A stretch of DNA of 63,847 bases, counting the filler, from Vermamoeba vermiformis (taxonomy: Eukaryota), in NCBI GenBank assembly GCA_045837725.1. It is 4 parts of 4 records of this genome, joined end to end, with 100 filler letters (N's around TTAATTAATTAA, not from the genome) between each part and the next. Parts side by side here need not be neighbours in the genome. Positions count along the whole stretch, not along the records: positions 28,456 to 55,348 come from JBEWZL010000042.1; 3 more parts are not named here. One strand, given 5' to 3'. Shown piece after piece: positions 30,491-48,343 of the stretch (positions within the stretch are counted from its first letter, which is position 1; each line of letters begins with the position of its first letter). The translations under genes were made by a program, and so were the position numbers. The notes under the pieces are model-generated. The model did no database searches. It saw only the letters and a program-made list of their open reading frames with translations, and was not told the origin of the DNA.

Positions 30491-30742
30491 TTAAGCCTTA
30501 TTATCATTCATATCATGTGCAGCTGTCTCTCTATCACATCGCTTCTCAAGTTGAATTGTAAACCAGTCAATTCCTTCTTGCAGACCCGTGCCGACTGTCG
30601 CACTACTCGCTTGAAGGTGCCACAGACGATTGGTCATAGAGCGAAGCTCTAATTTATCTATTATTTCATCTTCCGTCATTGCGTTGGGCAGATCCACTTT
30701 GTTCGCAAAGACCAAGAGCGGCACTGTCTCATCTGGCCCTGC
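30491..30742 (-). pseudogene. 3' part of an ARF/ARL-family small GTPase gene interrupted by the viral element (5' part at 55305-55348)
   Basis: [33 protein letters not shown]...[20 protein letters not shown] carries the ARF G4 NKxD and G5 motifs; the right flank reads TESAEELKKELSYAG in the same frame. Confidence 0.88.
30738..30742 (+). repeat. target-site duplication, left copy (CCTGC)
   Basis: CCTGC immediately precedes TGAAAA at 30743 and recurs at 55305-55309 right after TTTTCA. Confidence 0.93.
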
Positions 30743-30921
30743 TGAAAACGGCTTAGCCCTAGAACGATATCGGCCAGAATAACGAGGTATAATACTACTG
30801 AAATGCGGGTATCCGCACTGCTCGTATATACGAGCGATTTCATATAGGGAAAAACCGCCGCCATAACCTGCTAATTTTTCGTATGGATTGGTCATGGTAT
30901 TATTCGCCTCAGCCGTTTTCA
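30743..30921 (+). repeat. left terminal direct repeat (179 bp, TG...CA)
   Basis: TGAAAACGGCTTAG...CTCAGCCGTTTTCA; 11-bp perfect (13/14) terminal inverted repeat; identical to 55126-55304. Confidence 0.97.
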
Positions 30922-30964
30922 CTTACACACTTTCTTTAATACAGTTTTTCACTGCCATGTTATA

Positions 30965-32203
30965 ATGTCCACTAACCAACGAATATACAATAGGGCCCAG
31001 CTCGCACTGGCCAAGAACTTCATACAAGGCCACCGAGACCTGCGACTACTGGCGGCCCTCCCCGTGTCCTCTCGCTATGCATTCGCTCACAAGTATGCAA
31101 ATACAATAGTGAGACCCGATGGTAAATTGGCAGAGGTAATAGACGGTAAGGCCTACGAGATTGTACCACGAGAAGATGTTGACGATGTCATCAAGGAACT
31201 TTATGCCTCGACTCAGTTCGGCCGAGACAAGCTCTATGAGACTTACATCAAGCCAAGACTATTGGGAGTATCGCGACAAGATGTGGCCCGTGTCATTTCA
31301 GCCGAATACACACAGCAAGTTCATCGAGTTGTCCCAAAGAAGTACTCGCATGTGGCCAGCATAAGAGCGACACGACCACTGGAACGCTGGATGGAGGATG
31401 TGACGATGCTCCGAGAATCAGACAGGCAAAAGATCTTCATCATCAGTATGGTTGACTGCTTTTCGAAGTACGCGTGGGCCAAGCTAGTGACCAAAGCAAA
31501 GACAGCGAGACATGGTGCAGGCTTGCGAGGCGTGACATCCCAAGACATTGCCAATTTCCTTCGTGGTATCGTTCGTCAGGACTTTAAGCCCTCAGTCCTG
31601 CATACAGACAATGGTAACGAGAACACAGGCGCCCCAGTCAACGATGTCTGTCGTGAGTTTGGCATCAAGAGAGCGTATGGGTCGGTGTATCAAAGCAGGA
31701 GTCAAGGACAAGTTGAAAGATTTCAAAGAACGATCAAGTCAATGATCTTCAAGAAGTTCACATTCACCGACAATGAAACCTTCAACAATCAAGAACTCCA
31801 GCGTCTCGTGCGAAACTACAACGAGAGCTGGCATGCCACTACTGGACGCATCCCAATTGAAATTATGAAGTTCTCGAATGAAGACCGCAACCCTCGAGGA
31901 GTCACCAAGGCTGCTGACAAGATCATCGAACAAGCGGACAAATACAAACAAAAATTCGCCATGACAGCCAAGGCGATTCCAAGAGAAGCCAAGGTCAGAC
32001 TCGCGTTGAGTGTGCTTAACCCGAAGTTACTGAAGCAAGAGAGGAAGGGGTATCTTCAACAATGGTCCGATACAATCTACACCGTCAAGGTCAGGACGAA
32101 AGGAAAGAACTCATTGGTCTATTATCTAGTCGAAGACGAGAATGGTCGTCCATTGAATAAACGACTTTACCGCAACCAACTTCAACCAATCGTCACGAAC
32201 TAA
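30965..32203 (+). CDS. retroviral-like (rve/DDE) integrase, Polinton type
   Basis: WMEDVT...MVDCFSKYAWA...VLHTDNGNE...QGQVERFQRTIK (D-D-E); C-term KGYLQQWSDTIYTV...YLVEDENGRPLNKRLYRNQLQ resembles Polinton integrases; no intact HHCC. Confidence 0.92.
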   Translation: MSTNQRIYNRAQLALAKNFIQGHRDLRLLAALPVSSRYAFAHKYANTIVRPDGKLAEVIDGKAYEIVPREDVDDVIKELYASTQFGRDKLYETYIKPRLLGVSRQDVARVISAEYTQQVHRVVPKKYSHVASIRATRPLERWMEDVTMLRESDRQKIFIISMVDCFSKYAWAKLVTKAKTARHGAGLRGVTSQDIANFLRGIVRQDFKPSVLHTDNGNENTGAPVNDVCREFGIKRAYGSVYQSRSQGQVERFQRTIKSMIFKKFTFTDNETFNNQELQRLVRNYNESWHATTGRIPIEIMKFSNEDRNPRGVTKAADKIIEQADKYKQKFAMTAKAIPREAKVRLALSVLNPKLLKQERKGYLQQWSDTIYTVKVRTKGKNSLVYYLVEDENGRPLNKRLYRNQLQPIVTN

Positions 32204-32231
32204 ATTTGCAGGTGGTATAGTGTATCGCGAG

Positions 32232-32471
32232 ATGGACAAGAAACCGAGACGAGTTACGAAGAGAGTCCCTAAGCCGAAGAGCAAGGCAAAAAATAGTGCT
32301 CTCGTGCCCATCAACAAAAGGGCCAAAGAATTGATGCGCGCTGACCCATCTCTCCCAAGACTAACCGCTGTTAGTCGAGCCGCAGAAGAGATTCGCGAGG
32401 CCAGAGACAAGGGAAATCAACCTGTTGTTGTCTCTGTGGTCAAAAAAGAGAAAGCTTCGAAGAAGCGTTAA
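32232..32471 (+). CDS. small basic protein (possible DNA-binding/core protein)
   Basis: Lys/Arg-rich ORF of about 79 aa after the integrase, preceded by TATAG. Confidence 0.55.
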   Translation: MDKKPRRVTKRVPKPKSKAKNSALVPINKRAKELMRADPSLPRLTAVSRAAEEIREARDKGNQPVVVSVVKKEKASKKR

Positions 32472-32529
32472 CATAGTCCTGTGCGAATTTTTTTTTATAT
32501 TTATACAGATCATCACCAAAATCAACAAG

Positions 32530-32892
32530 ATGAGCAAGCCCCGACGACTCCCTTTGGGAACTAAAGCCGCCGCTGCGGACGTGAAAGCTTTCGCGCCTAC
32601 CTTTCTAGACAATGGTTTCCAAGCCTACGTTGAAGCTTTCCTTCAAGATGCCATCGAGGACCCCAAGAAAGCCCTGAAGACTAAAAACGAAAACATTGCA
32701 CTGGCCAAAGCAGCCGCCAAGAAGATTTATAATGATGTAGTCGATGCTCTCACTTGGACTGCCGACGCTGACAAGATGGCCGAAGTCGCAGCAGAGATTG
32801 CCAAGTGGGCCCAAGCTGAAATGTTGAAGGTTGTCTCACAAGGCCATCCCACATCTGTTCCGAACAAGATCGAATACAAAGCTCCATTGTAA
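32530..32892 (+). CDS. hypothetical viral protein
   Basis: ATG at 32530 preceded by T-run/TATA motif; 120 aa, Ala/Lys-rich helical. Confidence 0.65.
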   Translation: MSKPRRLPLGTKAAAADVKAFAPTFLDNGFQAYVEAFLQDAIEDPKKALKTKNENIALAKAAAKKIYNDVVDALTWTADADKMAEVAAEIAKWAQAEMLKVVSQGHPTSVPNKIEYKAPL

Positions 32893-32936
32893 GCCAAGAA
32901 CTCATTTCTATTTTTGATAAGAGATTTATAGGCACT

Positions 32937-33557
32937 ATGTCACGTAAGCACAAAAAATACGGTCAATTTGAGTTCTCCGCTTGGACTCCCCGAGACATAC
33001 CTTGGGTTCGACAAGTAATGATCGCTGGTGGTTTGAATCGGCATAGTGATGAAAAGAGTCCGTTAGATAGTCCCACAGTCGCTCGAGGTATTGCAAAGGA
33101 TGCACTGGCCAGTCCAGCGAAGTTCACTTCATCAGACGTGGGCAACTTTGTTACGGAGGCTTATCGTGAAGGAGCGACGAAGGCCTTGGTTGAGGGTGAA
33201 AAAGAGAAGGAGCAGCTGAAGAAAGTTCACGAAGAAGAGAAGAAGGAGGTCAAGGCGAAAACGGTCGAGTCCTCCAAAGGTGTGACACTAACAAATTTGC
33301 AGGTTACGGATGGTTCTTTCTCTGTTGACGAACCGCTCCGTGGTAATGAGGCCGTACTGAAGAATCTTGGCGTTCTTGATGCTTCGTACATCCTCAAGTT
33401 TCCTGCTCACAACAAGAAGAGCGAAAAGAAATTGACTGTAAAGGAGTTCAAAGAGTACGCCACCTCAACGCAAAATCAGTTCCTTGGCCGACTCGAATCA
33501 GGCGAGATTACAATCCTCAAGGGAGACAAGAAGGTAGGCAGTATCAAGCGCAAGTGA
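32937..33557 (+). CDS. hypothetical viral protein
   Basis: 206-aa ORF with element-type upstream motif. Confidence 0.7.
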   Translation: MSRKHKKYGQFEFSAWTPRDIPWVRQVMIAGGLNRHSDEKSPLDSPTVARGIAKDALASPAKFTSSDVGNFVTEAYREGATKALVEGEKEKEQLKKVHEEEKKEVKAKTVESSKGVTLTNLQVTDGSFSVDEPLRGNEAVLKNLGVLDASYILKFPAHNKKSEKKLTVKEFKEYATSTQNQFLGRLESGEITILKGDKKVGSIKRK

Positions 33558-33601
33558 GATTGGCACCTATTTTTTTCTCTAACTTATACCAGACATCAAA
33601 T

Positions 33602-34351
33602 ATGCAAGGTCTTGATCCTGCTGTGAAAAGCATCGTCTCACAAGTGACGTCCCAGAACACGTCCAACAACAATGATCTCCTCGAAGGTTTGGACATCGAA
33701 GGTGAAGGACAACCGAATGACGTTCCATCACTAGCCGATGGTAGCGATGATGGCTACGACTACCAAGAACCCCCAAGGGAGTACACAGCCAGCGAAAACA
33801 AAGAAAGGAAAAATCTAATCGCCATCCTTTCGGCCTATCAGACAACGAGATCACGATCAAATGGTGGTCTCCTTCGTCACCTTCGTGATTCGACTCGCTC
33901 TGTCTTGATGAACGCTGCCATCGAACAAATGAGCCTTGAGGAACTCCGTGCATTACGCCGACAAATCCGCACGGACTTGAAGAGTTCTGGAGGTTCCGCT
34001 GTGATGTACGAGCGTCTCTACAATGAAGGCATCGTGAAAGCAGAGGAGGTAGCGGTCATGAGAGGCCACAATGCGAAAGGCTTCGCTCAACGAGCCTCGA
34101 CACTGAATCCTGAGATTGCTGATTGCTTCGACGAGTTCATGGCGGAACATCCAGGCGGTCAGATCGATCTGCCAATATGGCTCAAATTCCCATTGGTTGT
34201 TGCTTCAGCTTATGCAACGACTGTCGCATTGAACAACATGGCTGCAACGAAGCAAGCCCAAACTCAACAACAATCTTCTGCGGATATTGTCGGCAATCCT
34301 TCTCAAAAAGTGCAAGACATCGCAAGAGATATTGCAGTATTGCCAAAGTAA
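33602..34351 (+). CDS. hypothetical viral protein
   Basis: 249 aa from MQGLDPAV; acidic N-terminus, helical core, hydrophobic segment near the C-terminus. Confidence 0.7.
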   Translation: MQGLDPAVKSIVSQVTSQNTSNNNDLLEGLDIEGEGQPNDVPSLADGSDDGYDYQEPPREYTASENKERKNLIAILSAYQTTRSRSNGGLLRHLRDSTRSVLMNAAIEQMSLEELRALRRQIRTDLKSSGGSAVMYERLYNEGIVKAEEVAVMRGHNAKGFAQRASTLNPEIADCFDEFMAEHPGGQIDLPIWLKFPLVVASAYATTVALNNMAATKQAQTQQQSSADIVGNPSQKVQDIARDIAVLPK

Positions 34352-34402
34352 GGAGTTGCAATCTTTTTTTCTTTATTATACTAGCAATTGCAACTCAACA
34401 AT

Positions 34403-34870
34403 ATGCAGCAAGAACCTATCACGACATATCCCGCTGAGAAACCCTCAGCAACCATGGGACAACGTCTCATGAAAGCCGCCGTAACCGCGGGCGTGACCTA
34501 CGTTGGATTGAGCCTTCTCGGCATGGCCTCAAGTGACACCAACTCGATCTTGGGACTCAGTGCTCCCGACGCAGTGCTCGTTGCTGGCACCATGGGCGTC
34601 GGTCAATATTTCGCAGAACCTATCAAAGGCATGGTTCAGTCATACTTGCCTGAATCTGTCGTGACTTCACCTTGGTATGATACTTTGGCTCACCCTATCA
34701 GTGCTGTCGCAACTGGTTCGATTCTCTACAACATGCTCAACAGCGACGATCGTTCCATTGGCTTGAACGAAGGAGGTCTCGCTCTCATGGGCCTGGGTCT
34801 TGCCGCGAACTATGTTTCCACCCCTATCGACAACTATCTCGATCCCTCCACCAATGGTCTCTTGATCTAA
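34403..34870 (+). CDS. hypothetical Gly/Ala-rich membrane protein
   Basis: Several hydrophobic segments. Confidence 0.65.
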   Translation: MQQEPITTYPAEKPSATMGQRLMKAAVTAGVTYVGLSLLGMASSDTNSILGLSAPDAVLVAGTMGVGQYFAEPIKGMVQSYLPESVVTSPWYDTLAHPISAVATGSILYNMLNSDDRSIGLNEGGLALMGLGLAANYVSTPIDNYLDPSTNGLLI

Positions 34871-34895
34871 AAAATATGGTCCGTTTTCTAGCCAT

Positions 34896-35087
34896 TCATT
34901 TTTTTGTTCTCGCTTTCACTTCTGGGTATCCTGCTGGAGAATTTGCAGCGATGTAGTTGTCATGAAAGGTCAATGCTTCTTGGAGGTCTTTCGATCTTCC
35001 GACGATGTATGGCCTCTTTCTACGAAGAACGACTGCGTAATAATGGCCGTCGTACCAACTCACTCCTTTTGGCTGTGGACTTTCCAT
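34896..35087 (-). CDS. stand-alone AP2-like DNA-binding domain protein
   Basis: PKGVSWYDGHYYAVV...PYIVGRSKDLQEALTFHD resembles the AP2 consensus (KGVSW...W.A.I....YLG.F....EAA.AYD). Confidence 0.6.
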   Translation of the reverse strand: MESPQPKGVSWYDGHYYAVVLRRKRPYIVGRSKDLQEALTFHDNYIAANSPAGYPEVKARTKK

Positions 35088-35123
35088 CTTTGCCCTATAT
35101 CGTTGTCAAAAAAAATAACTCTC

Positions 35124-35573
35124 TTACTCTTGGCTTAATATTGCCTCAAACTCTCTCAAGAGAGCTTCTCGCACTTCTTTGGCTGGGTGACTGATATTGA
35201 TCAACGCTCGTAGATTCGTTGCCTCTTCTGGCGTGAGCTTGCGGACCTTCGGTGGCATCGGTTGGACCTCGACTCTTGTTCGTGGAGGGAGTTTGGCCTT
35301 TCTTTCGAACTGTGGTGGCTCCACTGGACTCGCTCGATATTGTGCCGCCAGCGCTTGCAGATTTGCCTCGTTCTCGTTCAAGAACCTTTTCACTACCATG
35401 TCACTGCACCCTAGCGTGGTACTTATCTTTTTGAGTGGGACGTTTTGGTACCACGAGAAAGCAGCATACCTCGCCTGTTCTTGCGTGAATTCATACTTAA
35501 CGCGGCCTTTGGAAAGATTAGCGATTCGCTGCGCAGCTGTTGCCTTCTTTCGTTGCTCAACTACTTCGTCCAT
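35124..35573 (-). CDS. helix-turn-helix protein (paralog of 37703-38107)
   Basis: WYQNVPLKKISTTLGCSDMVVKRFL is HTH-like; shared LAAxY...PPxF linker. Confidence 0.6.
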   Translation of the reverse strand: MDEVVEQRKKATAAQRIANLSKGRVKYEFTQEQARYAAFSWYQNVPLKKISTTLGCSDMVVKRFLNENEANLQALAAQYRASPVEPPQFERKAKLPPRTRVEVQPMPPKVRKLTPEEATNLRALINISHPAKEVREALLREFEAILSQE

Positions 35574-35631
35574 GTTCGTTTGTTTTGTTCTATACATTGT
35601 TTAATAAAAAAATAAAATACGACACTCTTTG

Positions 35632-36189
35632 TTACACTTTGTATCTGATTCTCACCTTCTCTGCCAATTCGGCTTTGCCTTTCCTGATGAGGCTGTATAT
35701 CGTGAACTGTGCCACATTCGCAGGCAAGGCCGGATGATGCAAGAAAGTATTGTAGTGCTCGCCTGGCACACTACGAAAGAACTCGTCGTACTTTGGATAC
35801 TTCATGACTATTTCCAACACGTCAAACTTTTCGCTAAATATCGAGAACAATATGAATTCTTCGTTATAGAACTCACCCAACGAGTGTTCGAGTATTTGAT
35901 CGTCGTCTGGCATTTGTGACACCGCCAAGCCGTTTAATTTTTCGTAGTATGGCTGGCCTCGGAATGCTTTCAGTGTTTCTACCACTCTTTCTCTTTTCGG
36001 TGCTTTCGCCAGAATTCTGAGAATGATATCGCATTGGTCGTATCCTTCTCGCAATTCATCTTGCAGGTTAAATCCGTCATCTAACATGGACTTTACTCTT
36101 TCAACATCTGTCAGTGACAGTGCCGTCATGAACGCCATCTTTTTGTTGTGCGTCAGGTACGGTGCTATGTACCGCGCTATTGACTCCAT
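35632..36189 (-). CDS. hypothetical viral protein
   Basis: 185-aa ORF with element-type upstream motif. Confidence 0.65.
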   Translation of the reverse strand: MESIARYIAPYLTHNKKMAFMTALSLTDVERVKSMLDDGFNLQDELREGYDQCDIILRILAKAPKRERVVETLKAFRGQPYYEKLNGLAVSQMPDDDQILEHSLGEFYNEEFILFSIFSEKFDVLEIVMKYPKYDEFFRSVPGEHYNTFLHHPALPANVAQFTIYSLIRKGKAELAEKVRIRYKV

Positions 36190-36227
36190 TGCTATATATT
36201 GTTACACAAAAAAATAAAATACGACGC

Positions 36228-36566
36228 TTACGTACTAAGATTCTTCACACCCCAACGCTTGGCGTAGTGCATTTGACACACCTTTTCCCCTGGCAGTATC
36301 AGTCTTCTACACTGGGTCTCACCATCCGCGACACATGGGAACTTGTCCGGAATGTGCGCTGGACAAAACTCGTAGCCTTTCGCTGCAGCTGCCATGCACG
36401 GCTTGCCCATCTGCGTTGAGCCTTTGCAGAATACTAGTCGCGTCCCTGTTCGCTCGCACTCAGTCTTATTCGGTATGTGCGCTGGACAATATTCATACCC
36501 TGTCGCTGCTGCTCCCATACACGGCTTATTTAGACGTGTTGTGCCCTTACATATCCTTCTCTCCAT
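36228..36566 (-). CDS. Cys/His repeat (C-x-C-x-CxxH) zinc-finger protein
   Basis: CKGTTRLNKPCMGAAATGYEYCPAH / CKGSTQMGKPCMAAAAKGYEFCPAH / CVADGETQCRRLILPGEKVCQMH. Confidence 0.7.
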   Translation of the reverse strand: MERRICKGTTRLNKPCMGAAATGYEYCPAHIPNKTECERTGTRLVFCKGSTQMGKPCMAAAAKGYEFCPAHIPDKFPCVADGETQCRRLILPGEKVCQMHYAKRWGVKNLST

Positions 36567-36626
36567 CTCTTTCTCTTTTCCTATACTTATCAAAAAATAA
36601 GCAGGTGATTGGTATTTTTTGTCGTG

Positions 36627-37370
36627 CTACATGCGTGTGAGAAAGCACTCCTTCTTCGTTACATGTACGTCGATGTCCGCTTTGTGCACGACCGCATGAC
36701 AGAAGTTACACACCACCTTGTTGCCCATTTGTAGCTTGATTGCATGTTCGGCAGGTATTGGTCTCTGGAGGCGTGGTCGCGTTGGCTTGTAGATGTTGGT
36801 GCAGAAATTAGGCATATTTGGGATGAATTTCATTCGCCAGGGACGCACCTCATAAAGTTTTTCAATTGCTTCGGGACTTTCAGGGACTTCATAGTAACTT
36901 TTGATTGGTAGTTTCTTCCCTGTTCTTTTTTGCATTGCGAGGTGATTCGCTCTGAACTCGGCTTGACGGGCACTGTACTTCTCCATGCAGTATTGTTGGT
37001 ATTTCTCGGCTTCTTCAACTAATTTAGGTTGGCGATATCGGGCTGTCTCAATTTCAATCGGATTGTATGGTTCCAACAATTCCAAATCATAATCCCTGAA
37101 CGCTGATATTCTCTCCCAGTCTCGCATCCTCGAGCGAGTGTCCCAATATCTGCGAAGGTTCTCGCAAAACTTTTCACTCGTGAACACTCGCAGTGTATCG
37201 ACGCTTGCTTCACGTGCGTATTGGTACAGCCACTCACAGATACAATCCGCTTCCTCTTCGACTATCAAATCCTTTGTGTCTTGGATTATCTTGCTCAGTC
37301 TTCCCATTTGAGCTAGGAATTCCTTGTCGAACCTGAAGTACGGTTCAATCCAAACTTTCGCTGCCGTCAT
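36627..37370 (-). CDS. hypothetical protein with C-terminal C2HC zinc finger
   Basis: 247 aa, ends CNFCHAVVHKADIDVHVTKKEC. Confidence 0.65.
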   Translation of the reverse strand: MTAAKVWIEPYFRFDKEFLAQMGRLSKIIQDTKDLIVEEEADCICEWLYQYAREASVDTLRVFTSEKFCENLRRYWDTRSRMRDWERISAFRDYDLELLEPYNPIEIETARYRQPKLVEEAEKYQQYCMEKYSARQAEFRANHLAMQKRTGKKLPIKSYYEVPESPEAIEKLYEVRPWRMKFIPNMPNFCTNIYKPTRPRLQRPIPAEHAIKLQMGNKVVCNFCHAVVHKADIDVHVTKKECFLTRM

Positions 37371-37447
37371 TTCTAATAATTCAATTCCGTTCCACTATAC
37401 TACTGTATATAAAATAATAAATATTACTCTTTAACGCATGTTTGAGC

Positions 37448-37627
37448 TTACTGTTGATTCCAGTGAGCCGTTGCCGTGCTTCTGAACATTTCTGTTCTGT
37501 CTGCGTGGGCTGCCATTGCTTTGTCCATTATCGGGTCTATGTATTGTTGCGGTATTACTCCCACGTATCCCATCGTAAATCTTACGGCCTCCTTCGTTAT
37601 TTCCATCATCATTCGCTCTTCTTCCAT
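37448..37627 (-). CDS. small hypothetical protein (59 aa, below the ORF-track cutoff)
   Basis: MEEERMMMEITKEAVRF...HWNQQ*, preceded by the T-run/TATAG motif. Confidence 0.45.
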   Translation of the reverse strand: MEEERMMMEITKEAVRFTMGYVGVIPQQYIDPIMDKAMAAHADRTEMFRSTATAHWNQQ

Positions 37628-37702
37628 TCTTGTTTCGTGTTCGTCTATATACTACGTATACAAAAAAATAATTATGACTTTTTAACGCACTACATTGCAC
37701 TT

Positions 37703-38107
37703 TCAATTACCTCCAGTGGAGATCAAGCCCATTTCTTCGATATGCCTCTTGAGGCGACCGACGCCTATATGAAGGGATCTCGCTATTTTTACCTGAGAAA
37801 CTCGTCCTTGCCACATCGAGACTATCTTGTCGCGCATTGCCGGTGTGAGTTCTGGTGTCGCAGTCATATCTTCTGGGAATGTTGGTGGTGGTTGTGTCGC
37901 ATCATAATTAGCAGCTAGTTGGTCTATTTGTCCTTCGATTCTCTTCAAGTGGTCTTGCACGAAGTTCCTGCTCTTTTTTATCATCTTTCCGATCGCGTAC
38001 GGGGTCTTGCCATTCTTCGATAGATACGCGATGTATCCCAGATGTTGGTCATTTAGCTGCTTGTAGGGACGGCCCCTTCTATTTATCGTCGCATCTGTTC
38101 GTTCCAT
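37703..38107 (-). CDS. double helix-turn-helix protein
   Basis: RRGRPYKQLND...KTPYAIGKMIKKSRNFV and LTPAMRDKIVSMWQGRVSQVKIARSLHIGVGRL. Confidence 0.7.
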   Translation of the reverse strand: MERTDATINRRGRPYKQLNDQHLGYIAYLSKNGKTPYAIGKMIKKSRNFVQDHLKRIEGQIDQLAANYDATQPPPTFPEDMTATPELTPAMRDKIVSMWQGRVSQVKIARSLHIGVGRLKRHIEEMGLISTGGN

Positions 38108-38228
38108 TTGGGTTTTGCAACTGCGTTAAAGGGTTATAAAAAATTTATTATATACTTGTATACACAAAAAGTTGAAATTGTTCTAACGCACTTACTATCA
38201 AAACGAACTTGTTTAACACGCTTTTATA

Positions 38229-40829
38229 ATGGCCTCAGAAAACAATCTTGGTTCCGTCGCGAAGAAATTAGCAGTTATGGGTATTGTCTGTCTTCCGCTC
38301 TCTAGACATGACAAGCACGGCCACGGAAAAGCCCCAATGCCTGAGAAGTGGCAAAACTTCACCGTCCAAAAGGCTATTGAATTCGATTGGTCCAAGGCCA
38401 CGAACATCGGTATCTTGACTGGTCCTTCTTCGGGAATTGTCTGCCTTGATATTGATGTCGAAGATAGTGGATTCGAACTGTTCGCTGAGTACGAGAGGAA
38501 ATTCGGCAAGCTTGTTGGTCGGTACCCTCGACAAAACACTGGTCGAAAAGGTTTGCACATCTTCGGCAAGAATGACCCGCGTTTCAAAAGTAGGTCGAAG
38601 ATCATCATTGATGGTGTTGAGCATGGCTTGGACATGAAGGCCAAGGGAGGCCAAGCCGTCATCGAGCCTAGCGTTAACTGTGTTTCCGGTGGTAAGTACG
38701 AGTGGGTCGAAGGCCATTCCTTGTTCGACTACTACAAGGATGAATCCAAGCCATTGCACGAACAAATCGATGCCTTCCCTGAAAGCTTGATTGAATTCAT
38801 GGTCACTCGCAAGTACAAGCGCGGCCCCGACGGAAATTTGATTCCCACTGCAGAAGCTAAGCGCACAAGAGCGAAGAAAAATCCGCAATTTCCTGGTGAA
38901 CCTGCTACGGAAAAGGTTAGCGCTTCCATCGTCGTTCCTTCTTTCTCTGGTGAGACACGTACCGTCGACCTCCAAAAAGAAAAGAAACTTATCAACCTTA
39001 GACCGCCTACTATCGAGCAAATCGAAATGATTCTTCGGTACTTGAGCACAGAGCGGTTGATGAACTACGATGAGTACATCTCTATCATCGGAAGTTTGTT
39101 CCATGCTACCGAGCACGATGAATCGTTGAACCTGAAAACCCGTGAGTTGGTCAAGGACTGGATTCGCGTTCACTACGTTGGTGAGTACGATCCTCACTGG
39201 CATGACGACAAATGGAATTCCTTGGTTCGCGAGAATGCTGGGTCTGAGAACGCACACTTCGGTTCACTGATTGAGAAGGCTCGCATCGACTCCCCAGGAT
39301 TCGACGATGAGTTTGAGGTCAATCGCAAAGTCATTTGGGGCGCTTACACTGACGAGGAGTTGATCGAGCTTGGTATCAAACCCAAGAGACCTGCGATTAT
39401 GAAGTACCTGACATGTAATCAGTTCGACCATGCGGATGCCTTCGTCGAGTTCAACAAGAGTGATGTCGTGGTGAAGGACAAGAACGAGTGCTACATTTGG
39501 GACGATGCCAAAAAGCTCTGGAAGCAGGGTGATCACATCTCATTGATTGACAAAATTGGCAGGTACTTGTTGAAAATGATCGCTGAATGCGAAGCTGCTA
39601 ACGATAAGTGGAAATTCGGTGTCCCCGAGGCTCAGTTTAGCCTGATCGAAGGAAAAGTTCAGATGGTTTGTTGGGCGGGCAATGTATCAAGGGTTGTCAT
39701 CGCGCGCATGAGACCTCTCGCTGAAGACATCAAGTTCGATAACGGCGGCGGCAACGAACACTTCCTCCCAATCAAGGGTGGTAGAGTCGTCGACCTTCGC
39801 ACTGGCGAGGTTCGTGAGCGTAGAAAGACAGACTACTTCACCATCGAATGCCCTGTCGAAATCGAAACGGACAAGGACCGAAACGCTATCGCGAAGAAGT
39901 TCGTGTTAGACATTTGCCGTGGTGACGAGGAGCTTATGTCTTACTTACAGAAATGCTTGGGCTACATGCTTACTGGTGACACGAGTGCACAGTCCTACTT
40001 CATTATGCATGGTCGCGGTGCTAACGGCAAGTCAGCCCTATTCGACTGTATGCAAGCGGTCTTGGGTGGGTTCTACACGCAAGTAAGCAAGACACTGATG
40101 CTCTCGTTGAAAGACAGTGCAGGTCGCGCCACACCCGAGCTCATGACTCTCGAGGGCAAGCGATGTGCCATCTACACGGAACTCAACGTCAGTGACACTA
40201 TCTGCGATGGTATGGTCAAGAAGCTTACCGGCGAGAAATCAACTGTCGGTCGCAAACTGTACGGCGAAGAGCGAGAACTGCCCTTGTTCGCCAAGCTCTC
40301 ATTCTTGACTAACCACAAGCCCAAGGTCAAGATGGACTTTGCCATGAAGCGCCGCACCAAGTTCATCCCATACAAAGGCCACTTCGCCAGCCGTGACGAT
40401 CCTGAGTTCGTACCGGGCGTTAGTTACGAAAAGAACGTTCCGTTGGTCAACAGTATGCTTACCGAGAATCTCAGCGCGTTCGCAACTTGGCTGGTCGAGG
40501 GAGCACAACGCTATTACGCTGAGGGCATTGACAAGCTGCCTGCGATCGTTGCCGAGGAATTGGCAAGTTACGTGGAGGAGTGTAACGAGTACGACACTCT
40601 CCAACAGTTCCTCGATGAGTCTGGCCGTGTCACGAGACTCCCGACCGACGAAGTTCAGGCCACGAAGCTACTGGCCGAGTACACACTCTGGTGTAATGGC
40701 CAACACCTCAAGCCAATGAAATCAAATGAGTTCTACGGCAAGCTCACCGAAAAAGGCTACACGAAGCGAAAGAGTCACGGTGTCATGGTGTACACCGGCC
40801 TTGGCCTGAAGTCGCGCGACGACCTGTAA
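38229..40829 (+). CDS. bifunctional primase-polymerase (Prim-Pol) fused to D5-like superfamily 3 helicase
   Basis: GKAP...NIGILTG..GIVCLDID...TGRKGLHIF (Prim-Pol); PriCT-like NYDEYISIIGSL; VVDLRTGEVR (D5_N); Walker A HGRGANGKS; KKLTGE...RKLY; TNHKP...MKRR. Confidence 0.92.
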   Translation: MASENNLGSVAKKLAVMGIVCLPLSRHDKHGHGKAPMPEKWQNFTVQKAIEFDWSKATNIGILTGPSSGIVCLDIDVEDSGFELFAEYERKFGKLVGRYPRQNTGRKGLHIFGKNDPRFKSRSKIIIDGVEHGLDMKAKGGQAVIEPSVNCVSGGKYEWVEGHSLFDYYKDESKPLHEQIDAFPESLIEFMVTRKYKRGPDGNLIPTAEAKRTRAKKNPQFPGEPATEKVSASIVVPSFSGETRTVDLQKEKKLINLRPPTIEQIEMILRYLSTERLMNYDEYISIIGSLFHATEHDESLNLKTRELVKDWIRVHYVGEYDPHWHDDKWNSLVRENAGSENAHFGSLIEKARIDSPGFDDEFEVNRKVIWGAYTDEELIELGIKPKRPAIMKYLTCNQFDHADAFVEFNKSDVVVKDKNECYIWDDAKKLWKQGDHISLIDKIGRYLLKMIAECEAANDKWKFGVPEAQFSLIEGKVQMVCWAGNVSRVVIARMRPLAEDIKFDNGGGNEHFLPIKGGRVVDLRTGEVRERRKTDYFTIECPVEIETDKDRNAIAKKFVLDICRGDEELMSYLQKCLGYMLTGDTSAQSYFIMHGRGANGKSALFDCMQAVLGGFYTQVSKTLMLSLKDSAGRATPELMTLEGKRCAIYTELNVSDTICDGMVKKLTGEKSTVGRKLYGEERELPLFAKLSFLTNHKPKVKMDFAMKRRTKFIPYKGHFASRDDPEFVPGVSYEKNVPLVNSMLTENLSAFATWLVEGAQRYYAEGIDKLPAIVAEELASYVEECNEYDTLQQFLDESGRVTRLPTDEVQATKLLAEYTLWCNGQHLKPMKSNEFYGKLTEKGYTKRKSHGVMVYTGLGLKSRDDL

Positions 40830-40854
40830 ATAAATATTATTATTTTTTGTTTTG

Positions 40855-41165
40855 CCTAGGGCTTGCTTATTTTTATCTAGTGGGGAGGGCTTGGGGAGCC
40901 CCTAATTATTACGATTTATGCGAGGGTACCGATAAAAATATCTAGCGGGGGAGGCCGGGGAGACGGGGGAGGCATTGCAAACAGTATTTCCGTATACGCC
41001 CGTACACGTGCGTGGTGGCGCGTGGAATGAGCAGTGTGATGATTGATTTTCTGATATATACTTTTGACTAGGTCTCCCCCCCTCCCCGGCCTCCCCCGCT
41101 AGATAAAAATAAGTGAAGCCTAGATATACAAGGGCCTCCCCAAGCCTCCCCCGCCCTCCCCCGTT
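40855..41165. repeat. GC-rich nested inverted-repeat/iteron region, candidate replication origin
   Basis: Five GGGGAG on + followed by six CTCCCC; perfect 24-bp inverted repeat 40939-40962/41082-41105. Confidence 0.6.
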
Positions 41166-41529
41166 AAAAATATCAGTAAAATTACCTGAGACGAGATTGG
41201 ACCGAGATGACGACAAACCAACGACGAATAACATACAATCACCTGCGCATTCCTCGTGCGGACGGTAATAAATAATATGGGACGTGTGTGGTGCCTAGTA
41301 AGGGGCCGCGTTAACAAAATAAAAAAATAAGAAGTGCGCTTCTGAAAATCAGAAGTGAGCTGCTGAAAAAATCAGAAGCTAGCTGCTAGAAGCTAGTTTC
41401 TAGCCAATAGCGGATAGTCGCTGGGAGATTTCGGTTCGCAGACAAAAAAGTTTGGAAATAGTAGTCGGTTAGTTTCATAGTAGGAGGTCCGCTCAGCACC
41501 ACGTTTTTGTTTGTATTTTTTTGCGAGTA

Positions 41530-42078
41530 ATGGCAGCGCACCCGAATCACAGATATGCAGAGTCCCAATATATTAATGACGAGCTCGGGTGTCGCGCAAG
41601 AGTGCGAGGAGCATGGTGTGGAAAGAACCCAGTCCACCCAACAAGTCAATATTGCAAATCGCACAATAAGAATAGGTCGATAATACTGCCCAAAGAAGTG
41701 TACGACCACCTTGCAAGACGGAATGCATTACCGTTCGAAGAGCTCCAGAGACCACAAAGAGCTATCGAACGAGAGGAGTCAAGGATAGAAGAAATATCAG
41801 ACGAAGATAGCGAAGAAGCACCGAGCGGAATGATGTCGCCGAAAGAAAAGAGACTAATGCTCAACAAAGAGGAGCTAATGAAAAGAGTGCAACGGCTTCA
41901 AGAAGAGATAACGAAGGAAAGGAAGCTAAGACGAGCAGAAGCAGTTGTAAAAGAATTGAAACCTTCGTTCTGGGAAGGAGTACGAGACAAACTCGAGTTC
42001 CCATCATTCCTAATGATACTGAAGACAGTGGTAGTGCTCGCCTTGATGTACATGATCAAGATATTGATATTCTATTAG
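41530..42078 (+). CDS. protein with one C-x-C-x-CxxH motif, coiled coil and C-terminal TM
   Basis: CRARVRGAWCGKNPVHPTSQYCKSH; hydrophobic tail. Confidence 0.6.
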   Translation: MAAHPNHRYAESQYINDELGCRARVRGAWCGKNPVHPTSQYCKSHNKNRSIILPKEVYDHLARRNALPFEELQRPQRAIEREESRIEEISDEDSEEAPSGMMSPKEKRLMLNKEELMKRVQRLQEEITKERKLRRAEAVVKELKPSFWEGVRDKLEFPSFLMILKTVVVLALMYMIKILIFY

Positions 42079-42296
42079 ACTCGCAAATACAAAAAGAACG
42101 CCGCGAGACCATTCTCGGTTCGGAGAGTGGTAGGCACCGGTCTGGGGAGACTGGAGCCCGTCAGTGCGACTCGCTCGGAGTTAATCTGATGTACGCGGTG
42201 GAAATCAAAACAAACAAAAACAACCAAAACTAAAAAGAAATAAACCTGAGTTGGGGTGCGGGGTTGGAGTAGGCGGCGAGCCAAGCGGGTGAGAGT

Positions 42297-42584
42297 TCAG
42301 AAGTCCTCAAAGTCAAGGTCGAGCAAGGCTTGAAGTTCGTCCCGGGGAACGATGCCGTGAGCAAGGTAGTCGTGTCCGAATAAATCTCGAAGCAAACTGT
42401 CGCTGACGACACCGGAGTCAATATCAGAAATCAAGTCAACAACTTGCTGACGGGAAAGAAAGGTTTCGGACTCGCCAACAACGCAACAAAGAGCAGAGAA
42501 GTCGAAATCCTCGTCGTCAACTTCAGGTAGGAAGAAAGAGAAGGTGTTATGAGGAGCGGTGAGAGTACTGTTGGGTTTAGGCAT
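42297..42584 (-). CDS. small acidic hypothetical protein
   Basis: 95 aa; shares a duplicated upstream motif with the next gene. Confidence 0.55.
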   Translation of the reverse strand: MPKPNSTLTAPHNTFSFFLPEVDDEDFDFSALCCVVGESETFLSRQQVVDLISDIDSGVVSDSLLRDLFGHDYLAHGIVPRDELQALLDLDFEDF

Positions 42585-42634
42585 TTGCTCGTGTATAAAA
42601 GGCCAAAACGAAAAAATAGCCGTTCATAAATCGC

Positions 42635-43246
42635 TCAATCGCGCGAGGGTAGCTTGACGCCAATGATCTCATCGTAGAGCTTATTGCAATTGACCTCCAA
42701 TGAGTCTTTGTTGGTGATGAATTCGGTGAGCTTGGACGTGATGTCCTCGCCAAGGGACTCAATCACATCCCTGCTCATTGCGGCAATAGTGTTAGCGAGA
42801 ATACCAGTAGCGAGAAGACCGGCGGAAGTGTTGCGTGCTTTGATGAGTTGGACGAGGTACTGACGAAGGAACTTAAGATAGTCATTGAAAGGAAGGACGA
42901 TTTGGAAAGAAGGAATGATCATGGACATAGCTAAGACTTCGTGCTCAGTAGGAGCATCGGGTTTGTTAAGCGAGGAAACAACTTGGTTTATCTTACGGTA
43001 TTCGTCAGGGTGCATACGTTCAGGGAACCGCAGGTAACATTCAACACCTACAAAGCTAGTCATAGCATGTGGCACATGACGGGCAAGCTCTGCGACTCTT
43101 ACCAAGTCGTTGTATGTCCTCGACTGCTGGTATAATTGCCAGGCGGCTTTGAACTGGTCAAATTTCGAAAGGTCGCCAGTAAACATCTGCGTCAATCCTG
43201 AGGATTGCGCGAAATCCTTCGCCTTTTGAATGTGTGCGTCCATCAC
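42635..43246 (-). CDS. helical hypothetical protein (probable paralog of 44392-44973)
   Basis: FKAAWQLYQQS / VECYLRFPE / PTEHEVLAM align with the paralog. Confidence 0.65.
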   Translation of the reverse strand: MMDAHIQKAKDFAQSSGLTQMFTGDLSKFDQFKAAWQLYQQSRTYNDLVRVAELARHVPHAMTSFVGVECYLRFPERMHPDEYRKINQVVSSLNKPDAPTEHEVLAMSMIIPSFQIVLPFNDYLKFLRQYLVQLIKARNTSAGLLATGILANTIAAMSRDVIESLGEDITSKLTEFITNKDSLEVNCNKLYDEIIGVKLPSRD

Positions 43247-43633
43247 TGAAGTCTATACAAAGGCCCAAACGAAAATATAGCCGTTCATAAATTGTGTGTC
43301 TTTTCATGCCACAATCGCCTGGACAAAAAGAAGGCCAAGGTCAGGTAAATGCCGTTCATGGCCGAGAAGGGCCGAAGTCCTTTAATAAAGGATAATCGGC
43401 CTATGATCGTGAGTCCTGGGCAAAATGAGGGCCGCACAAGTGATGGCAATCAGGACAATGACTAACTGCACGCACCACGAGTTGTATGGGCCTTTCGTTG
43501 AGAGTAAAGTCGGTTTGATTCTTTCGAGTAACCTTCGGTCGAGTGGCACGCAACCACTGTCGTGTGTCTTCAATCCAATCACTCATCTGCTGATTTGTGT
43601 CCAATATTTTGTGTCAGTATATATACAGTAAAG

Positions 43634-44329
43634 ATGGAATACACACCGAGTGAAAGAGCGCTAGAGCTGCTCAGAAAGATTGGGGAAGCAATGGGATTAA
43701 AAGATGCCTCTCCGTTCCTTGATGCGTTGAAACAAATCGCGAATAACGCACGCCCTGGCGTAGCGCTTACTGAAGAGGTAGCAATCGAAATTCTTGAGGG
43801 TATCTTGGCACAAACGACGACACCTGAATTGAGACGCGTCGCGGAGTACAGGGAAAAGCAAAAAAAAGACCCTTTGCACGCACTTAAATCGAAGCCACCA
43901 ATAGTTGGTTACTTTTGCAAGATGTACGAAGAATTCGAACGCGATGAACGTGTGCCAATACCACCGTCGATTAACTACAGGAAGCACAAAGGATACGTAT
44001 GCATGAACGTTGGCGTGTCACCGGACGAGAGATTTATGAAAAAATATTTGAAGACACCAGCACATCATCCAGTCTACAGCTACGTACTACTATGGAAGCA
44101 ATTGGCAGATGTAATTGGTTGTCGCGATTTATGGTCTCCTCTTAGAAATGCCTACAAGGACTTGGTTAGCTGCGATTGTGGTCGTGTATGCATGACTGGG
44201 ACATGTATCAGATGTCGCACACTGTTGACACCGACAGATCTGATGATTATCGCTGGATTCCGCCAACCGAGATTTCTATTTAGCATTGAGGACCGTAGCT
44301 TTCTTTCCAGAGAGGAAGAGCAAAAATAA
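43634..44329 (+). CDS. hypothetical protein with C-terminal CxC..CxxC motif
   Basis: 231 aa from MEYTPSE; CDCGRVCMTGTCIRC. Confidence 0.65.
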   Translation: MEYTPSERALELLRKIGEAMGLKDASPFLDALKQIANNARPGVALTEEVAIEILEGILAQTTTPELRRVAEYREKQKKDPLHALKSKPPIVGYFCKMYEEFERDERVPIPPSINYRKHKGYVCMNVGVSPDERFMKKYLKTPAHHPVYSYVLLWKQLADVIGCRDLWSPLRNAYKDLVSCDCGRVCMTGTCIRCRTLLTPTDLMIIAGFRQPRFLFSIEDRSFLSREEEQK

Positions 44330-44391
44330 AGGGTCGCTTATTTTTTAGTCGGACGTTATGTCTATTGATTTTTTACCACTGTGTATACAAG

Positions 44392-44973: not shown

Positions 44974-44988
44974 AAAACAAAGGGTCAC

Positions 44989-45816: not shown

Positions 45817-45848
45817 AATTTTGCGTATACTATAGAGAGAAGATAATA

Positions 45849-46735: not shown

Positions 46736-46773
46736 GGCCTGTCTCTTTTTTTCTAAGGGCCTATAGTATAGTC

Positions 46774-47478: not shown

Positions 47479-47514
47479 AGCGCATAACTTTTTTTCATTC
47501 TTATAGCCACCAAG

Positions 47515-47820: not shown

Positions 47821-47882
47821 AGACCCAAACCGTTTTTTGACGAGTCATATACAGGTGACTGCCAAACGGAGCCCGCTACCAG

Positions 47883-48296: not shown

Positions 48297-48343
48297 AAAC
48301 TTTTTTATTTTGGAATTATAGCACATTCTTGACAAACGCAAAA

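Follow-up and report, generated by a model that had tools for sequence, protein, structure and literature searches.

A probable polinton-like provirus with direct, LTR-like terminal repeats in an Arf-family GTPase gene of Vermamoeba vermiformis

Retroviral integrases are common to retroelements and to the DNA viruses of the Polinton, polinton-like virus (PLV) and virophage groups, and the two groups are told apart by their ends, which are long terminal repeats (LTRs) made by reverse transcription in the former and long inverted repeats in the latter. Polintons and Ginger elements both carry terminal inverted repeats; Polintons encode a protein-primed PolB and leave 6-bp duplications, and Ginger elements are small and have no capsid genes. 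Polintons/Mavericks and Ginger cut-and-paste transposons are described, in the part of the source available to us, as DNA elements that use a retroviral-like integrase (PMC2836005).

Endogenous PLVs with an rve integrase are known from cryptophytes (PMC12220804) and from other protists (PMC10120064), according to the accessible portions of both reports. Inverted repeats are given for about 47% of the high-quality endogenous PLV loci in the available text of PMC10120064, and are used as a filter in that of PMC12220804. As far as these texts describe the procedure, both studies delimited elements by an inverted-repeat scan, so that a direct-repeat architecture would go unrecognised. Mavirus and the endogenous elements of Cafeteria have an rve integrase, no site specificity, 3-6 bp duplications and insertions that vary by strain, and the mid-GC mavirus-type elements carry a primase/helicase and a tyrosine recombinase in place of PolB (both from the available part of PMC8547959). 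Moreover, two integrated PLVs of Tyrannomonas regina, PLV-56 and PLV-78, have been reported with terminal direct repeats (median 266 bp). These carry a primase-helicase fusion replicase, a non-canonical rve-type integrase and a tyrosine recombinase, and their integration is attributed, in the accessible section of PMC12747079, to the tyrosine recombinase acting via a circular intermediate, typically without a duplication. A PLV or virophage combining direct repeats with an rve-type duplication was not found in our literature search, and per-element supplementary tables may hold cases.

In this study, we report the analysis of a stretch of DNA of 63,847 nucleotides (the window), which consists of contigs of the V. 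vermiformis assembly joined by N/TTAATTAATTAA linkers at 28356-28455, 55349-55448 and 61822-61921. The contig at 28456-55348, which stops 44 bp past the right-hand repeat described below, carries an inserted element bounded by two direct repeats. We consider it probable that these repeats are the ends of an intact and recent provirus, a polinton-like dsDNA virus which was inserted into a eukaryotic chromosome by its own integrase. Sequencing run X1, cited below, comes from a sample that may be the source of the assembly and is not independent of it. The ends of the element and their surroundings are as follows.

30738..30742, no strand: left target-site duplication CCTGC (direct reading; a single pentamer in the empty version of the site in X1 and X5)
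30743..55304, plus strand: whole inserted element, 24,562 bp, marked by a GC shift and by dense, long, intron-free ORFs
30743..30921, plus strand: left 179-bp terminal direct repeat, TG...CA (direct reading, repeat search and blastn; X1 word depth 579.7)
30743..30756, no strand: outer arm of the inverted repeat, with its partner at 30908-30921 (14 nt, 93%)
30820..30835, no strand, and again at 55203-55218: perfect 16-bp palindrome with a TATATA centre, within the repeat
55126..55304, plus strand: right 179-bp terminal direct repeat (direct reading, repeat search and blastn)
55126-55139 and 55291-55304, no strand: inverted-repeat pair of the right copy, equal to that of the left copy
55305..55309, no strand: right target-site duplication CCTGC (direct reading; X1 loose end at 30922)
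55349..55448, no strand: artificial contig linker, N44-TTAATTAATTAA-N44, a contig end and not biology

The two repeat copies are identical at 179 of 179 positions, as a sequence-only reading of this DNA had stated, both by direct reading and in a repeat search. The repeat search returned a match one base longer (30743-30922 and 55126-55305, 100%); the extra base, the 180th, is common to both (C) and forms part of the right-hand CCTGC, and the repeat unit is therefore 179 bp, with a start-to-start spacing of 24,383 between the copies. The same reading had described TG and CA termini, an inverted repeat at the ends of the unit, and a pentamer duplicated around the pair, and each of these was recovered. 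Both copies start with TG and end with CA on direct reading; the 14-nt arms are complementary at 13 positions, the outermost 11 bp being perfect, and are presumed to be the integrase-binding ends. CCTGC stands at the outer ends only, the inner borders reading CTTAC 3' of the left copy and GTACT 5' of the right copy. An 11-bp inverted repeat placed exactly at both unit ends has a chance expectation per placement of about 1 in 4 million, and agreement of the flanks over 5 bp one of 1 in 1024; the 179-bp exact repeat, the end-placed inverted repeat and the flank match are jointly far beyond chance.

Low-stringency blastn over the 64-kb window yielded no copies of the 179-mer beyond these two. Direct reading of the inner borders, where CTTACACAC comes after the left repeat and GATGTGCGTACT comes before the right repeat, also bore out the earlier observation that no tRNA primer-binding site and no polypurine tract lie beside the repeats. 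Searches of the window for tRNA genes and for Rfam families gave no matches. An 86-aa ORF on the minus strand, which begins inside the repeat at the right end, was not counted as a gene, having neither a family match nor an upstream promoter motif.

The element splits, in frame, an exon of a eukaryotic Arf-family GTPase gene, whose pentamer on the coding strand is GCAGG.

30491..30742, minus strand: 3' part of the split host exon, encoding the Arf GTPase C-terminus (Arf, 3.3e-14, profile positions 115-171 of 174)
55305..55348, minus strand: 5' continuation of the host exon, with an open frame that matches the 3' part when counted from the duplicated pentamer

A search for longer proteins with the Arf fragment gave no matches. 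The host is an ORF-poor and probably intron-rich eukaryote. In two RNA runs with the same species label, X6 and X8, which derive from samples different from the source, the host flank was covered by 0 reads, and the only matches were 11 and 8 poly-T reads of partial fit, respectively, near 32488; these counts carry no information on expression or splicing.

The element differs from its surroundings in composition. In 1-kb steps its GC content is 43-52% vs 33-48% outside, its own 2.3-kb left flank having 37-40%, and ORFs are dense within it while the flank is ORF-poor. Additionally, a T-run...TATA motif was found upstream of 11 of 26 element ORFs, vs 101 of 5000 random 60-mers. The genes that could be assigned are listed below.

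30965..32203, plus strand: rve DD35E integrase, 412 aa, its start 43 bp inward of the left repeat (Pfam and profile matches)
38229..40829, plus strand: replication protein of 866 aa with PrimPol, D5_N and superfamily-3 helicase (Prim-Pol 3.6e-16, DUF5906)
44989..45855, minus strand: A32-type (FtsK/HerA) packaging ATPase, 288 aa (Pox_A32 33.6 bits, cut-off 22.8)
48293..49627, plus strand: probable double-jelly-roll major capsid protein, 444 aa as listed (ESM-Atlas features)
49708..50481, plus strand: probable penton or minor capsid protein, 257 aa (feature score 0.98 to viral clusters)
50880..53507, plus strand: fibre of 875 aa with a C-terminal intramolecular chaperone (Peptidase_S74) and a coiled coil (Pfam and PHROG)
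54253..54591, minus strand: small membrane-like ORF near the right end, whose homologue adjoins the integrase in metagenome relatives

The integrase matched the rve family with 42.4 bits (Pfam cut-off 32.6), and its family profile matched the PFV, HTLV, HIV and Ty3 integrases in PDB with E values down to 2.5e-22. In an alignment of 26 sequences the residues D145 and D215 of the triad are invariant and E251 is nearly so, with DD35E spacing; by these matches and residues the protein is a genuine retroviral-type DDE enzyme. Its C-terminus is SH3-like. The HHCC zinc finger is absent, no zinc-finger family being found in any of the 26 clade members and no cysteine in the N-terminal 130 residues. 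A total of 3916 homologues were found at E <= 0.001; the best 150 of them are 225-889 aa long, mostly 300-600, so that none of those 150 is of Gag-Pol size. The 26-sequence profile detected 24 loci in IMG/VR at 21-34% identity, and the two of these records that were examined are both classed as having 'direct terminal repeats'. One IMG/VR record, G001, was considered as a parallel and dropped, its repeat being a 41-bp overlap without TG...CA logic.

The replication protein gave a full-length match to phrog_1156 (2e-85). The capsid candidate, which probably begins at the ATG near 48344, had ESM-Atlas feature scores of 0.98-0.96 to viral clusters in which Capsid_N or Capsid_NCLDV is found on 12-18% of members; its identification as a double-jelly-roll major capsid protein is probable, and draws on language-model features only. 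The same ORF gave no Pfam or PHROG match, its alignment gave a chance match (E = 1) in a PDB search, and its AF2 model (pLDDT 40.9) was too poor for use. The penton candidate adjoins it downstream and resembles a cluster with DUF5901 on 13% of its members; it had no Pfam or PHROG match. The lineage is almost unsampled: among 5.8 billion clusters one sequence homologue of the capsid candidate was detectable, and the closest integrases occur as singletons on contigs of 1.5-3 kb. Single-protein searches of IMG/VR with the capsid candidate, the integrase and the helicase gave no matches.

The 29 ORFs of the element were scanned for other enzymes. Reverse transcriptase, RNase H, gag and tyrosine recombinase were all absent from these ORFs by Pfam, and PolB was likewise absent among them. 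Its packaging ATPase, its length of 24.6 kb, its PrimPol/D5 helicase and its lack of PolB are as in PLVs, and it lacks the long terminal inverted repeats that are usual, not universal, in that group. The absence of PolB, the direct orientation of the repeats and the 5-bp duplication set it outside the Polintons/Mavericks. A PLV or virophage of the tyrosine-recombinase kind is also a poor fit, there being no Phage_integrase-type match among the 29 ORFs, and the uninterrupted site in X1 and X5 having no 179-bp segment.

The X1 contigs bear directly on the copy number of the repeat. Word depth was 579.7 in the repeat contig, 263-293 in the interior and 307 in the flank. The depth of the repeat is double that of interior and flank, which argues for two copies and not for an abundant MITE; these are the depths of a single-copy provirus with two repeats and no excess of free viral DNA. 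An abundant, independent MITE, which the sequence-only reading had named as what could overturn it, is therefore very improbable, and no duplication flanks either copy by itself. It is also very improbable that two independent MITE copies flank the viral DNA by chance, or mobilised it as a composite. Each unit is indeed of MITE size with terminal inverted repeats, and run X5, an aquifer metagenome, contains a related, LTR-like copy of the repeat with another flank and no detectable interior. However, CCTGC is common to the outer ends only, exactly two copies are indicated by the X1 depth with no others in the 64-kb window, and a direct-oriented composite would still need the same integrase, the only one nearby being the element's own, 43 bp away. 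Run X9 (DNA, 2017, same label) contained next to none of the words.

Both outer junctions are present in X1 contigs, one with the repeat and the right flank and one with the left flank up to the repeat. The window concatenates contigs, and the element's contig ends just past the repeat, as would be the case if, for example, a circular viral contig had been wrongly attached to a host contig. Such a pure assembly artefact is highly unlikely, since the X1 contigs were built separately and a mis-join would not produce a duplicated pentamer together with the in-frame split of one exon. The worry that the repeat itself might be an artefact was accordingly not borne out in this probable source sample.

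A different question is whether the interior lies between the repeats in the chromosome. The de Bruijn contigs of X1 do not extend beyond the borders of the repeat, and the order flank-repeat-interior-repeat-flank is therefore taken from the assembly alone, and among the X1 loose ends listed none represents the junction of the right end of the interior with the repeat. A solo repeat left with its duplication as an old scar in the host gene, together with a separate circular episome carrying one copy, could have been mis-joined through the shared repeat; the X1 contig graph, with one double-depth repeat node and the flank and interior on each side, fits both layouts equally, and it agrees with this arrangement that the contig breaks off 44 bp after the right-hand copy. 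So does the gene order in relatives. Two metagenome contigs, 98.7% identical to each other, carry an integrase 42-43% identical to that of the element, and in both a homologue of the ORF at 54253-54591 stands 54 bp from the integrase in divergent orientation, i.e. in the order expected of joined ends, which counts in favour of the provirus as well. There is no 179-bp-like segment between those two genes, and the position of the ends is thus not conserved. Against a solo repeat and an episome, the depth of the episome (263-293) would have to match that of one host haplotype (307) by coincidence, the assembler took the integrated path through both repeats, and two events are needed in place of one. 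We regard this arrangement as unlikely, and even if it were correct the integrase-type insertion with its duplication would stay real.

An empty site was also found. In X1, a second version of the gene crosses the site uninterrupted, with a single pentamer, without a 179-bp copy and at equal depth (360.7 vs 349.8), from which it follows that an empty site exists; this version seemingly is one base short just before the pentamer and may therefore be a paralogue or pseudogene, not an allele. A low-depth relative in X5 also crosses the site, with a single pentamer and no 179-bp copy. These sequences weigh against re-entry, in which a one-copy circular virus recombined, by a homologous or an unrecognised site-specific route, with a solo repeat remaining at the site from an earlier insertion by the integrase. 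The product of such an event would be indistinguishable from the observed structure, the copy in X5, which lies in other flanking DNA and lacks a detectable interior, suggests that isolated copies may occur, and published PLVs with direct repeats have been ascribed to tyrosine recombinases in the accessible part of PMC12747079. Besides the uninterrupted sites, the lack of a tyrosine recombinase in the 29 ORFs scanned and an X1 repeat depth that shows no additional identical copies make re-entry improbable, more so than the solo repeat with an episome. A single, direct insertion of the provirus is preferred. The earlier proposal that the encoded DDE integrase inserted the element recently is well supported by the rve enzyme, the identical repeats, the core ORFs, all of which are open, and the presence of the empty version in the same sample; the last three of these are the grounds for calling the insertion recent.

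The steps of such an insertion are suggested by the anatomy of the ends and the known chemistry of the enzyme family. The DDE integrase of the element would recognise the short inverted sequences (5'-TG...CA-3') that mark the outer borders and join both CA-3' ends to the target, 5 bp apart, within the Arf exon, and gap repair would then yield the CCTGC duplication. The repeats being direct and identical, each holds both end sequences, and each unit consequently has inverted ends in the manner of a retroviral LTR. In the absence of a reverse transcriptase from the element, the repeats cannot stem from template switching during reverse transcription and the 179-bp duplication must arise at the DNA level. 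Two routes may be envisaged. The packaged linear genome might have a 179-bp terminal redundancy, as in T7-like phages, whose direct terminal repeats of about 150-250 bp are made from concatemers by staggered nicks and fill-in synthesis. Alternatively, opposite-strand nicks at the borders of one 179-bp segment, in a circular or concatemeric form, could give 179-nt staggered ends that are filled in. Both routes would give the same product, and the form of the substrate is inferred. T7-like phages are bacterial and do not insert by a DDE integrase, so that the parallel is limited to how a DNA virus duplicates its ends.

A bolder reading of the second route is that a DNA virus makes LTRs without reverse transcription, its integrase nicking the borders of one 179-bp segment whose staggered ends are then joined to the target and filled in. 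We put this forward as doubtful though worth stating; if it were true, each integration would create two LTRs and each recombinational excision would restore one. If the two copies underwent homologous recombination, a 24,383-bp circle would form and one solo repeat would stay behind. With weaker grounds, splicing could remove the provirus, or a solo repeat, from the Arf mRNA and restore the frame, which would make it a virus-derived 'introner', given that the TG...CA termini within a G...G pentamer provide GT...AG borders and a CAGCAG acceptor preceded by a T-rich tract.

That an intact DNA virus can have LTR-like direct repeats with TG...CA termini and a 5-bp target duplication would mean that reverse transcription is no prerequisite for the integrated LTR architecture. 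The element also offers a defined case in which to study how DNA viruses come to duplicate their ends. With one element and short-read contigs behind it, this architecture is at present a lead and not an established class. As surveys bound PLVs by inverted repeats, judging from the available text of PMC10120064 and PMC12220804, such elements are probably under-counted or unbounded.

Compared with known systems, the element resembles LTR retrotransposons and retroviruses (Ty3/gypsy; PFV, HIV) in its direct repeats with short inverted TG...CA ends, in a duplication within the range of 4-6 bp, in a DD35E integrase that matches those of PFV and Ty3 by profile, and in the solo repeats expected by recombination. 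Unlike them, it lacks reverse transcriptase, RNase H, gag and protease, its repeats are not accompanied by a primer-binding site or a polypurine tract, its integrase has no HHCC finger, and its 24-kb interior carries DNA-virus genes. Like mavirus, it appears from its sequence to be a small, capsid-encoding dsDNA virus that integrates with an rve integrase; the long terminal inverted repeats, cysteine protease and protein-primed PolB of the mavirus type, as given in the parts of the literature at hand, were not found in it. From PLV-56 and PLV-78, compared by their partial published description and not by sequence, it differs in having no tyrosine recombinase, a 5-bp duplication and TG...CA inverted ends. 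With the rve-integrase PLVs, as described in the accessible portions of PMC12220804 and PMC10120064, it shares a size within 14-40 kb, an A32 ATPase, a probable capsid module, a fibre, a GC shift relative to the host, a helicase-primase in place of protein-primed PolB, an rve integrase and a short target-site duplication. Those PLVs have terminal inverted repeats of hundreds of bp and duplications that are mostly 6 bp, whereas in the element described here the long repeats run in the same direction, the inverted portion is limited to 11-14 bp, and the target duplication measures 5 bp.

Direct reading and a repeat search found the same 179 bp, at 100% identity, at 30743-30921 and at 55126-55304, with starts 24,383 bp apart; a 180th base also matches, namely the C that opens the right-hand CCTGC. 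Both copies of the unit start with TGAAAACGGCT and end with AGCCGTTTTCA, and the repeat search gave inverted arms of 14 nt with 93% complementarity. Because the long repeats are direct and identical, each carrying a left-end and a right-end recognition sequence, each unit is itself bounded by an inverted repeat, as holds for a retroviral LTR as well. The pentamer CCTGC lies at 30738-30742 and 55305-55309, immediately outside the element (30743-55304), and direct reading of the inner repeat borders revealed no shared bases. The sequence-only reading had described identical 179-bp direct repeats with inverted TG...CA ends and CCTGC at the outer borders only; re-reading and the repeat search confirmed this arrangement, which is far beyond chance. 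No third copy of the 179-mer was found in the window by permissive blastn. N44-TTAATTAATTAA-N44 linkers at 28356-28455, 55349-55448 and 61822-61921 join the contigs of the window (at least four), so distances and neighbourhoods across these points are meaningless. The contig carrying the element (28456-55348) ends 44 bp past the right repeat.

The insertion lies in a host gene. Left of the element, the minus strand codes for the C-terminal end of an Arf-family GTPase (Pfam Arf, E 3.3e-14, covering profile positions 115-171 of 174), so the host is a eukaryote. The 44 bp to the right contain no stop codon in the corresponding frame. As the pentamer has one and the same codon phase on both sides, a single uninterrupted exon results once the element and one pentamer are taken out. 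The pentamer and the element ends together form, on the minus strand, an upstream border CAG/GTGAAA and a downstream border TTTTCAGCAG/G (30738-30745, 55302-55309; the slash marks the border). Such GT...AG borders with a tandem acceptor could allow the insertion, or a solo repeat, to be spliced out with the Arf frame restored exactly or with one additional codon. An ATG in the left repeat opens a minus-strand frame (30896 to 30491) that leaves the unit and fuses in frame with the Arf C-terminus (143-aa ORF), and one in the right repeat opens an 86-aa ORF (55279 to 55045, minus strand). Neither frame has a family match or a promoter motif, and they are probably not genes; the left repeat could nevertheless drive or initiate a chimeric transcript with the Arf C-terminus.

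Parts of the stretch were present in five sequencing runs. An aquifer metagenome accounts for one of these; the other four derive from a single sample, possibly the source of the assembly. Positions 28456-48455 were compared with one run of this sample (X1), the aquifer run (X5) and two RNA runs, which yielded no usable reads. X1 word depths were 307 (flank contig), 579.7 (repeat contig of 180 nt) and 263-293 (interior contigs). The roughly doubled repeat depth indicates two repeats per single-copy provirus and no abundant family, and the interior depth relative to the flank indicates no excess of free viral DNA. The right outer junction is also present outside the assembly: one X1 contig exits the repeat at 30922 and continues into the right flank. 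The two objections that the sequence-only reading had raised against itself gained no support. An abundant independent MITE, or two independent MITEs flanking viral DNA, is very improbable, given that neither copy has its own duplication and that the repeat depth is exactly double. Equally improbable is a pure assembly artefact, since the junction recurs in the separate per-run contigs and a single exon is split in frame. A host gene holding a solo repeat, accompanied by a separate one-repeat episome, would give the same X1 contig graph as an integrated provirus; this arrangement is unlikely, as interior and flank depths are equal and the path chosen by the assembler is the integrated one.

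Uninterrupted sites were also found. At 30594-30713, X1 holds two flank versions, the reference (depth 349.8) and one with four substitutions (360.7). One X1 contig diverges from the reference at 30733 into right-flank-like sequence with a few substitutions and a single pentamer (CCTAC for CCTGC); this version is seemingly one base shorter than expected. X1 thus holds the uninterrupted site, as the other haplotype or a close paralogue. In X5 (depth 2-4), host-flank pieces were present, again with the uninterrupted site, and no piece of the interior was found in the 17.5 kb of it compared. Recombination of a circle back into an older solo repeat is somewhat less likely still than the episome, as the uninterrupted sites carry no repeat and no tyrosine recombinase was found among the element ORFs scanned. 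A 217-nt X5 contig matches 30743-30908 from the first base of the repeat, with four differences and unrelated sequence before it; the 179-bp unit is therefore a discrete entity with an identical left boundary in a second sample, present there as a solo copy or as a terminus of a divergent relative. In another X1 contig, 255 unrelated letters precede a match that begins only at the 13th base of the repeat (30755); this contig could be a chimera or a copy of the repeat that has diverged.

The 24.2-kb interior is densely filled with long ORFs on both strands and has a GC content of 43-52%, against 33-48% outside (1-kb steps) and 37-40% across the adjoining 2.3 kb on the left. This left flank is ORF-poor, and in 30 kb of host contigs only three ORFs reach 200 aa or more. 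The main genes are listed below.

Principal genes of the element
30965-32203, plus strand: rve (retroviral-type) integrase (Pfam)
38229-40829, plus strand: Prim-Pol, D5_N and DUF5906 helicase (Pfam; phrog_1156 full-length, E 2e-85)
44989-45855, minus strand: Pox_A32 packaging ATPase (Pfam)
48293-49627, plus strand: probable major capsid protein, 444 aa (ESM-Atlas feature search)
49708-50481, plus strand: probable penton, 257 aa (ESM-Atlas feature search)
50880-53507, plus strand: fibre with Peptidase_S74 chaperone (Pfam and PHROGs)

Neither the 444-aa nor the 257-aa ORF had a profile match in Pfam or PHROGs. In the ESM-Atlas feature search they scored 0.96-0.98 among purely viral clusters, and Capsid_N or Capsid_NCLDV occurs on 12-18% of members in the viral clusters matched by the 444-aa ORF. 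They are probable, rather than proven, major and minor capsid proteins. The AF2 model of the 444-aa candidate was unusable (pLDDT 40.9), a PDB sequence search with it gave no match, and its one detectable homologue is 26% identical. Like the nearest integrases, this homologue is a singleton; the contigs concerned measure 1.5-7 kb. No reverse transcriptase, tyrosine recombinase or protein-primed polymerase was detected in a scan of 29 element ORFs. The interior is an intact polinton-like virus (PLV) genome from a very sparsely sampled lineage.

Within the element, an 87-nt direct repeat (75% identity; 36342-36428 and 36465-36551, 123 bp apart) overlaps short ORFs on both strands. A 40-nt inverted repeat (78% complementarity; 40856-40895 and 41084-41123) lies directly 3' of the gene for the primase-helicase, where the GC content of the element is highest, and might be an origin or terminator.

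Many element ORFs are preceded, 10-40 nt upstream, by a run of at least five T followed within 25 nt by TATA[G/C/A]. This motif occurs within 60 nt upstream of 11 of 26 ORFs, versus 101 of 5000 random element 60-mers (2%), and has about 28 sites in 30743-55304.

Examples of T-run...TATA sites
32488, 34364, 49667, 50495, 50846: listed without strand
35612, 36214, 54621, 55037: minus strand

The motif suggests one promoter type common to the element genes and may reflect one transcription machinery, possibly a helper virus's own. Several sites suggest true start codons 3' of the listed ORF starts, e.g. near 48344 for the capsid candidate.

Of 3916 homologues of the integrase at E <= 0.001, the best 150 are 225-889 aa long, mostly 300-600, which is the size of stand-alone DNA-element integrases, unlike Gag-Pol polyproteins. 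An alignment of 26 sequences has D145 and D215 in every member and E251 in almost every one, at DD35E spacing; rve was found in all 26, a chromodomain in five and an HHCC finger in none. The integrase profile matches PFV integrase (E 2.5e-22), followed by those of HTLV, HIV and Ty3. Retroviral and Ty3 integrases join CA-3' ends to staggered target phosphates, leaving 4-6 bp duplications.

The outer borders show inverted TG...CA ends and a 5-bp duplication, the pentamer being single in uninterrupted copies, and the intact DD35E integrase gene starts 43 bp inside the left end. Recent insertion by an integrase, as claimed by the sequence-only reading, is well supported, here of a complete PLV-like virus into the Arf gene. 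Taken jointly, the two-repeat layout and insertion by the element's own integrase are likely. The integrase would join the TG...CA outer ends to the Arf target, producing the 5-bp duplication. Two equivalent proposals would account for the doubled 179 bp without reverse transcription. In the first, the packaged genome would be linear with 179-bp terminal redundancy, cut from concatemers; T7-like phages generate terminally redundant linear genomes in this way. In the second, the integrase would nick after CA on opposite strands at both borders of a single unit carried by a circle or concatemer, which would leave each 3' end with the 179 nt; the single-stranded stretches would be filled in after strand transfer. 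Working through the strand polarity of the second route gave flank-unit-interior-unit-flank with a 5-bp duplication exactly. The linear redundant substrate, the circle and the solo scar are predictions.

Two metagenome contigs (L030 and L031), 98.7% identical to each other, encode integrases 42-43% identical to that of the element. In both, a homologue of the right-end ORF 54253-54591 adjoins the integrase divergently at 54 bp, which lends support to a joined-end replicative form. No 179-bp-like segment lies between the two genes, so the end position is not conserved among relatives. A 23-nt inverted repeat with TATAAAT/TTTAATA (L031:1574-1647 and the matching part of L030) spans the 54-bp gap, overlaps both start codons and looks like a symmetric divergent promoter.

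Elsewhere in the window, on the contig following that of the element, a second rve core (56795-57427, minus strand, with 56102-56650, minus strand; Pfam rve 7e-13) is 27% identical to the element integrase. A CxxC motif precedes the core and the following ORF opens with a GDLVLV-type SH3-like stretch; this is probably a remnant of a different retroelement or DNA transposon. The first contig holds inverted repeats of 134 nt (87% complementarity; 20755-20888 and 25497-25630, 4.6 kb apart) with a second, weaker pair nested close within them (20932-20978 and 25387-25433); the arrangement may be a transposon bounded by terminal inverted repeats. On the third contig, an ORF with a Laminin_G_3 (concanavalin-like lectin) domain (60490-61179, minus strand) adjoins cysteine-rich ORFs and probably represents a host surface-protein exon.

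In the main texts of the reports consulted, PLVs, mavirus-like elements and Polintons have long terminal inverted repeats and 3-6 bp duplications (PMC12220804, PMC8547959, PMC4642659, PMC10120064, preprint 10.64898/2026.07.28.741278), and direct terminal repeats on one metagenomic PLV contig were interpreted as a circular genome (PMC4642659). The LTR-like architecture on a PLV-like virus is a variant, represented by one element known from short-read contigs. The combination of direct repeats with a DDE-type duplication was not found described in the full texts searched, in which the only integrated PLVs found with terminal direct repeats were two from Tyrannomonas regina, where such repeats are called rarely reported (PMC12747079). 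That account ties them to a circular intermediate on which a tyrosine recombinase acts, typically without making a duplication. As described there, these PLVs share the primase-helicase with the present element and have a non-canonical rve integrase; compared by description rather than sequence, they may be relatives of it. In contrast to the T. regina PLVs as so described, the present element has no detectable tyrosine recombinase and carries the full signature of DDE integration.
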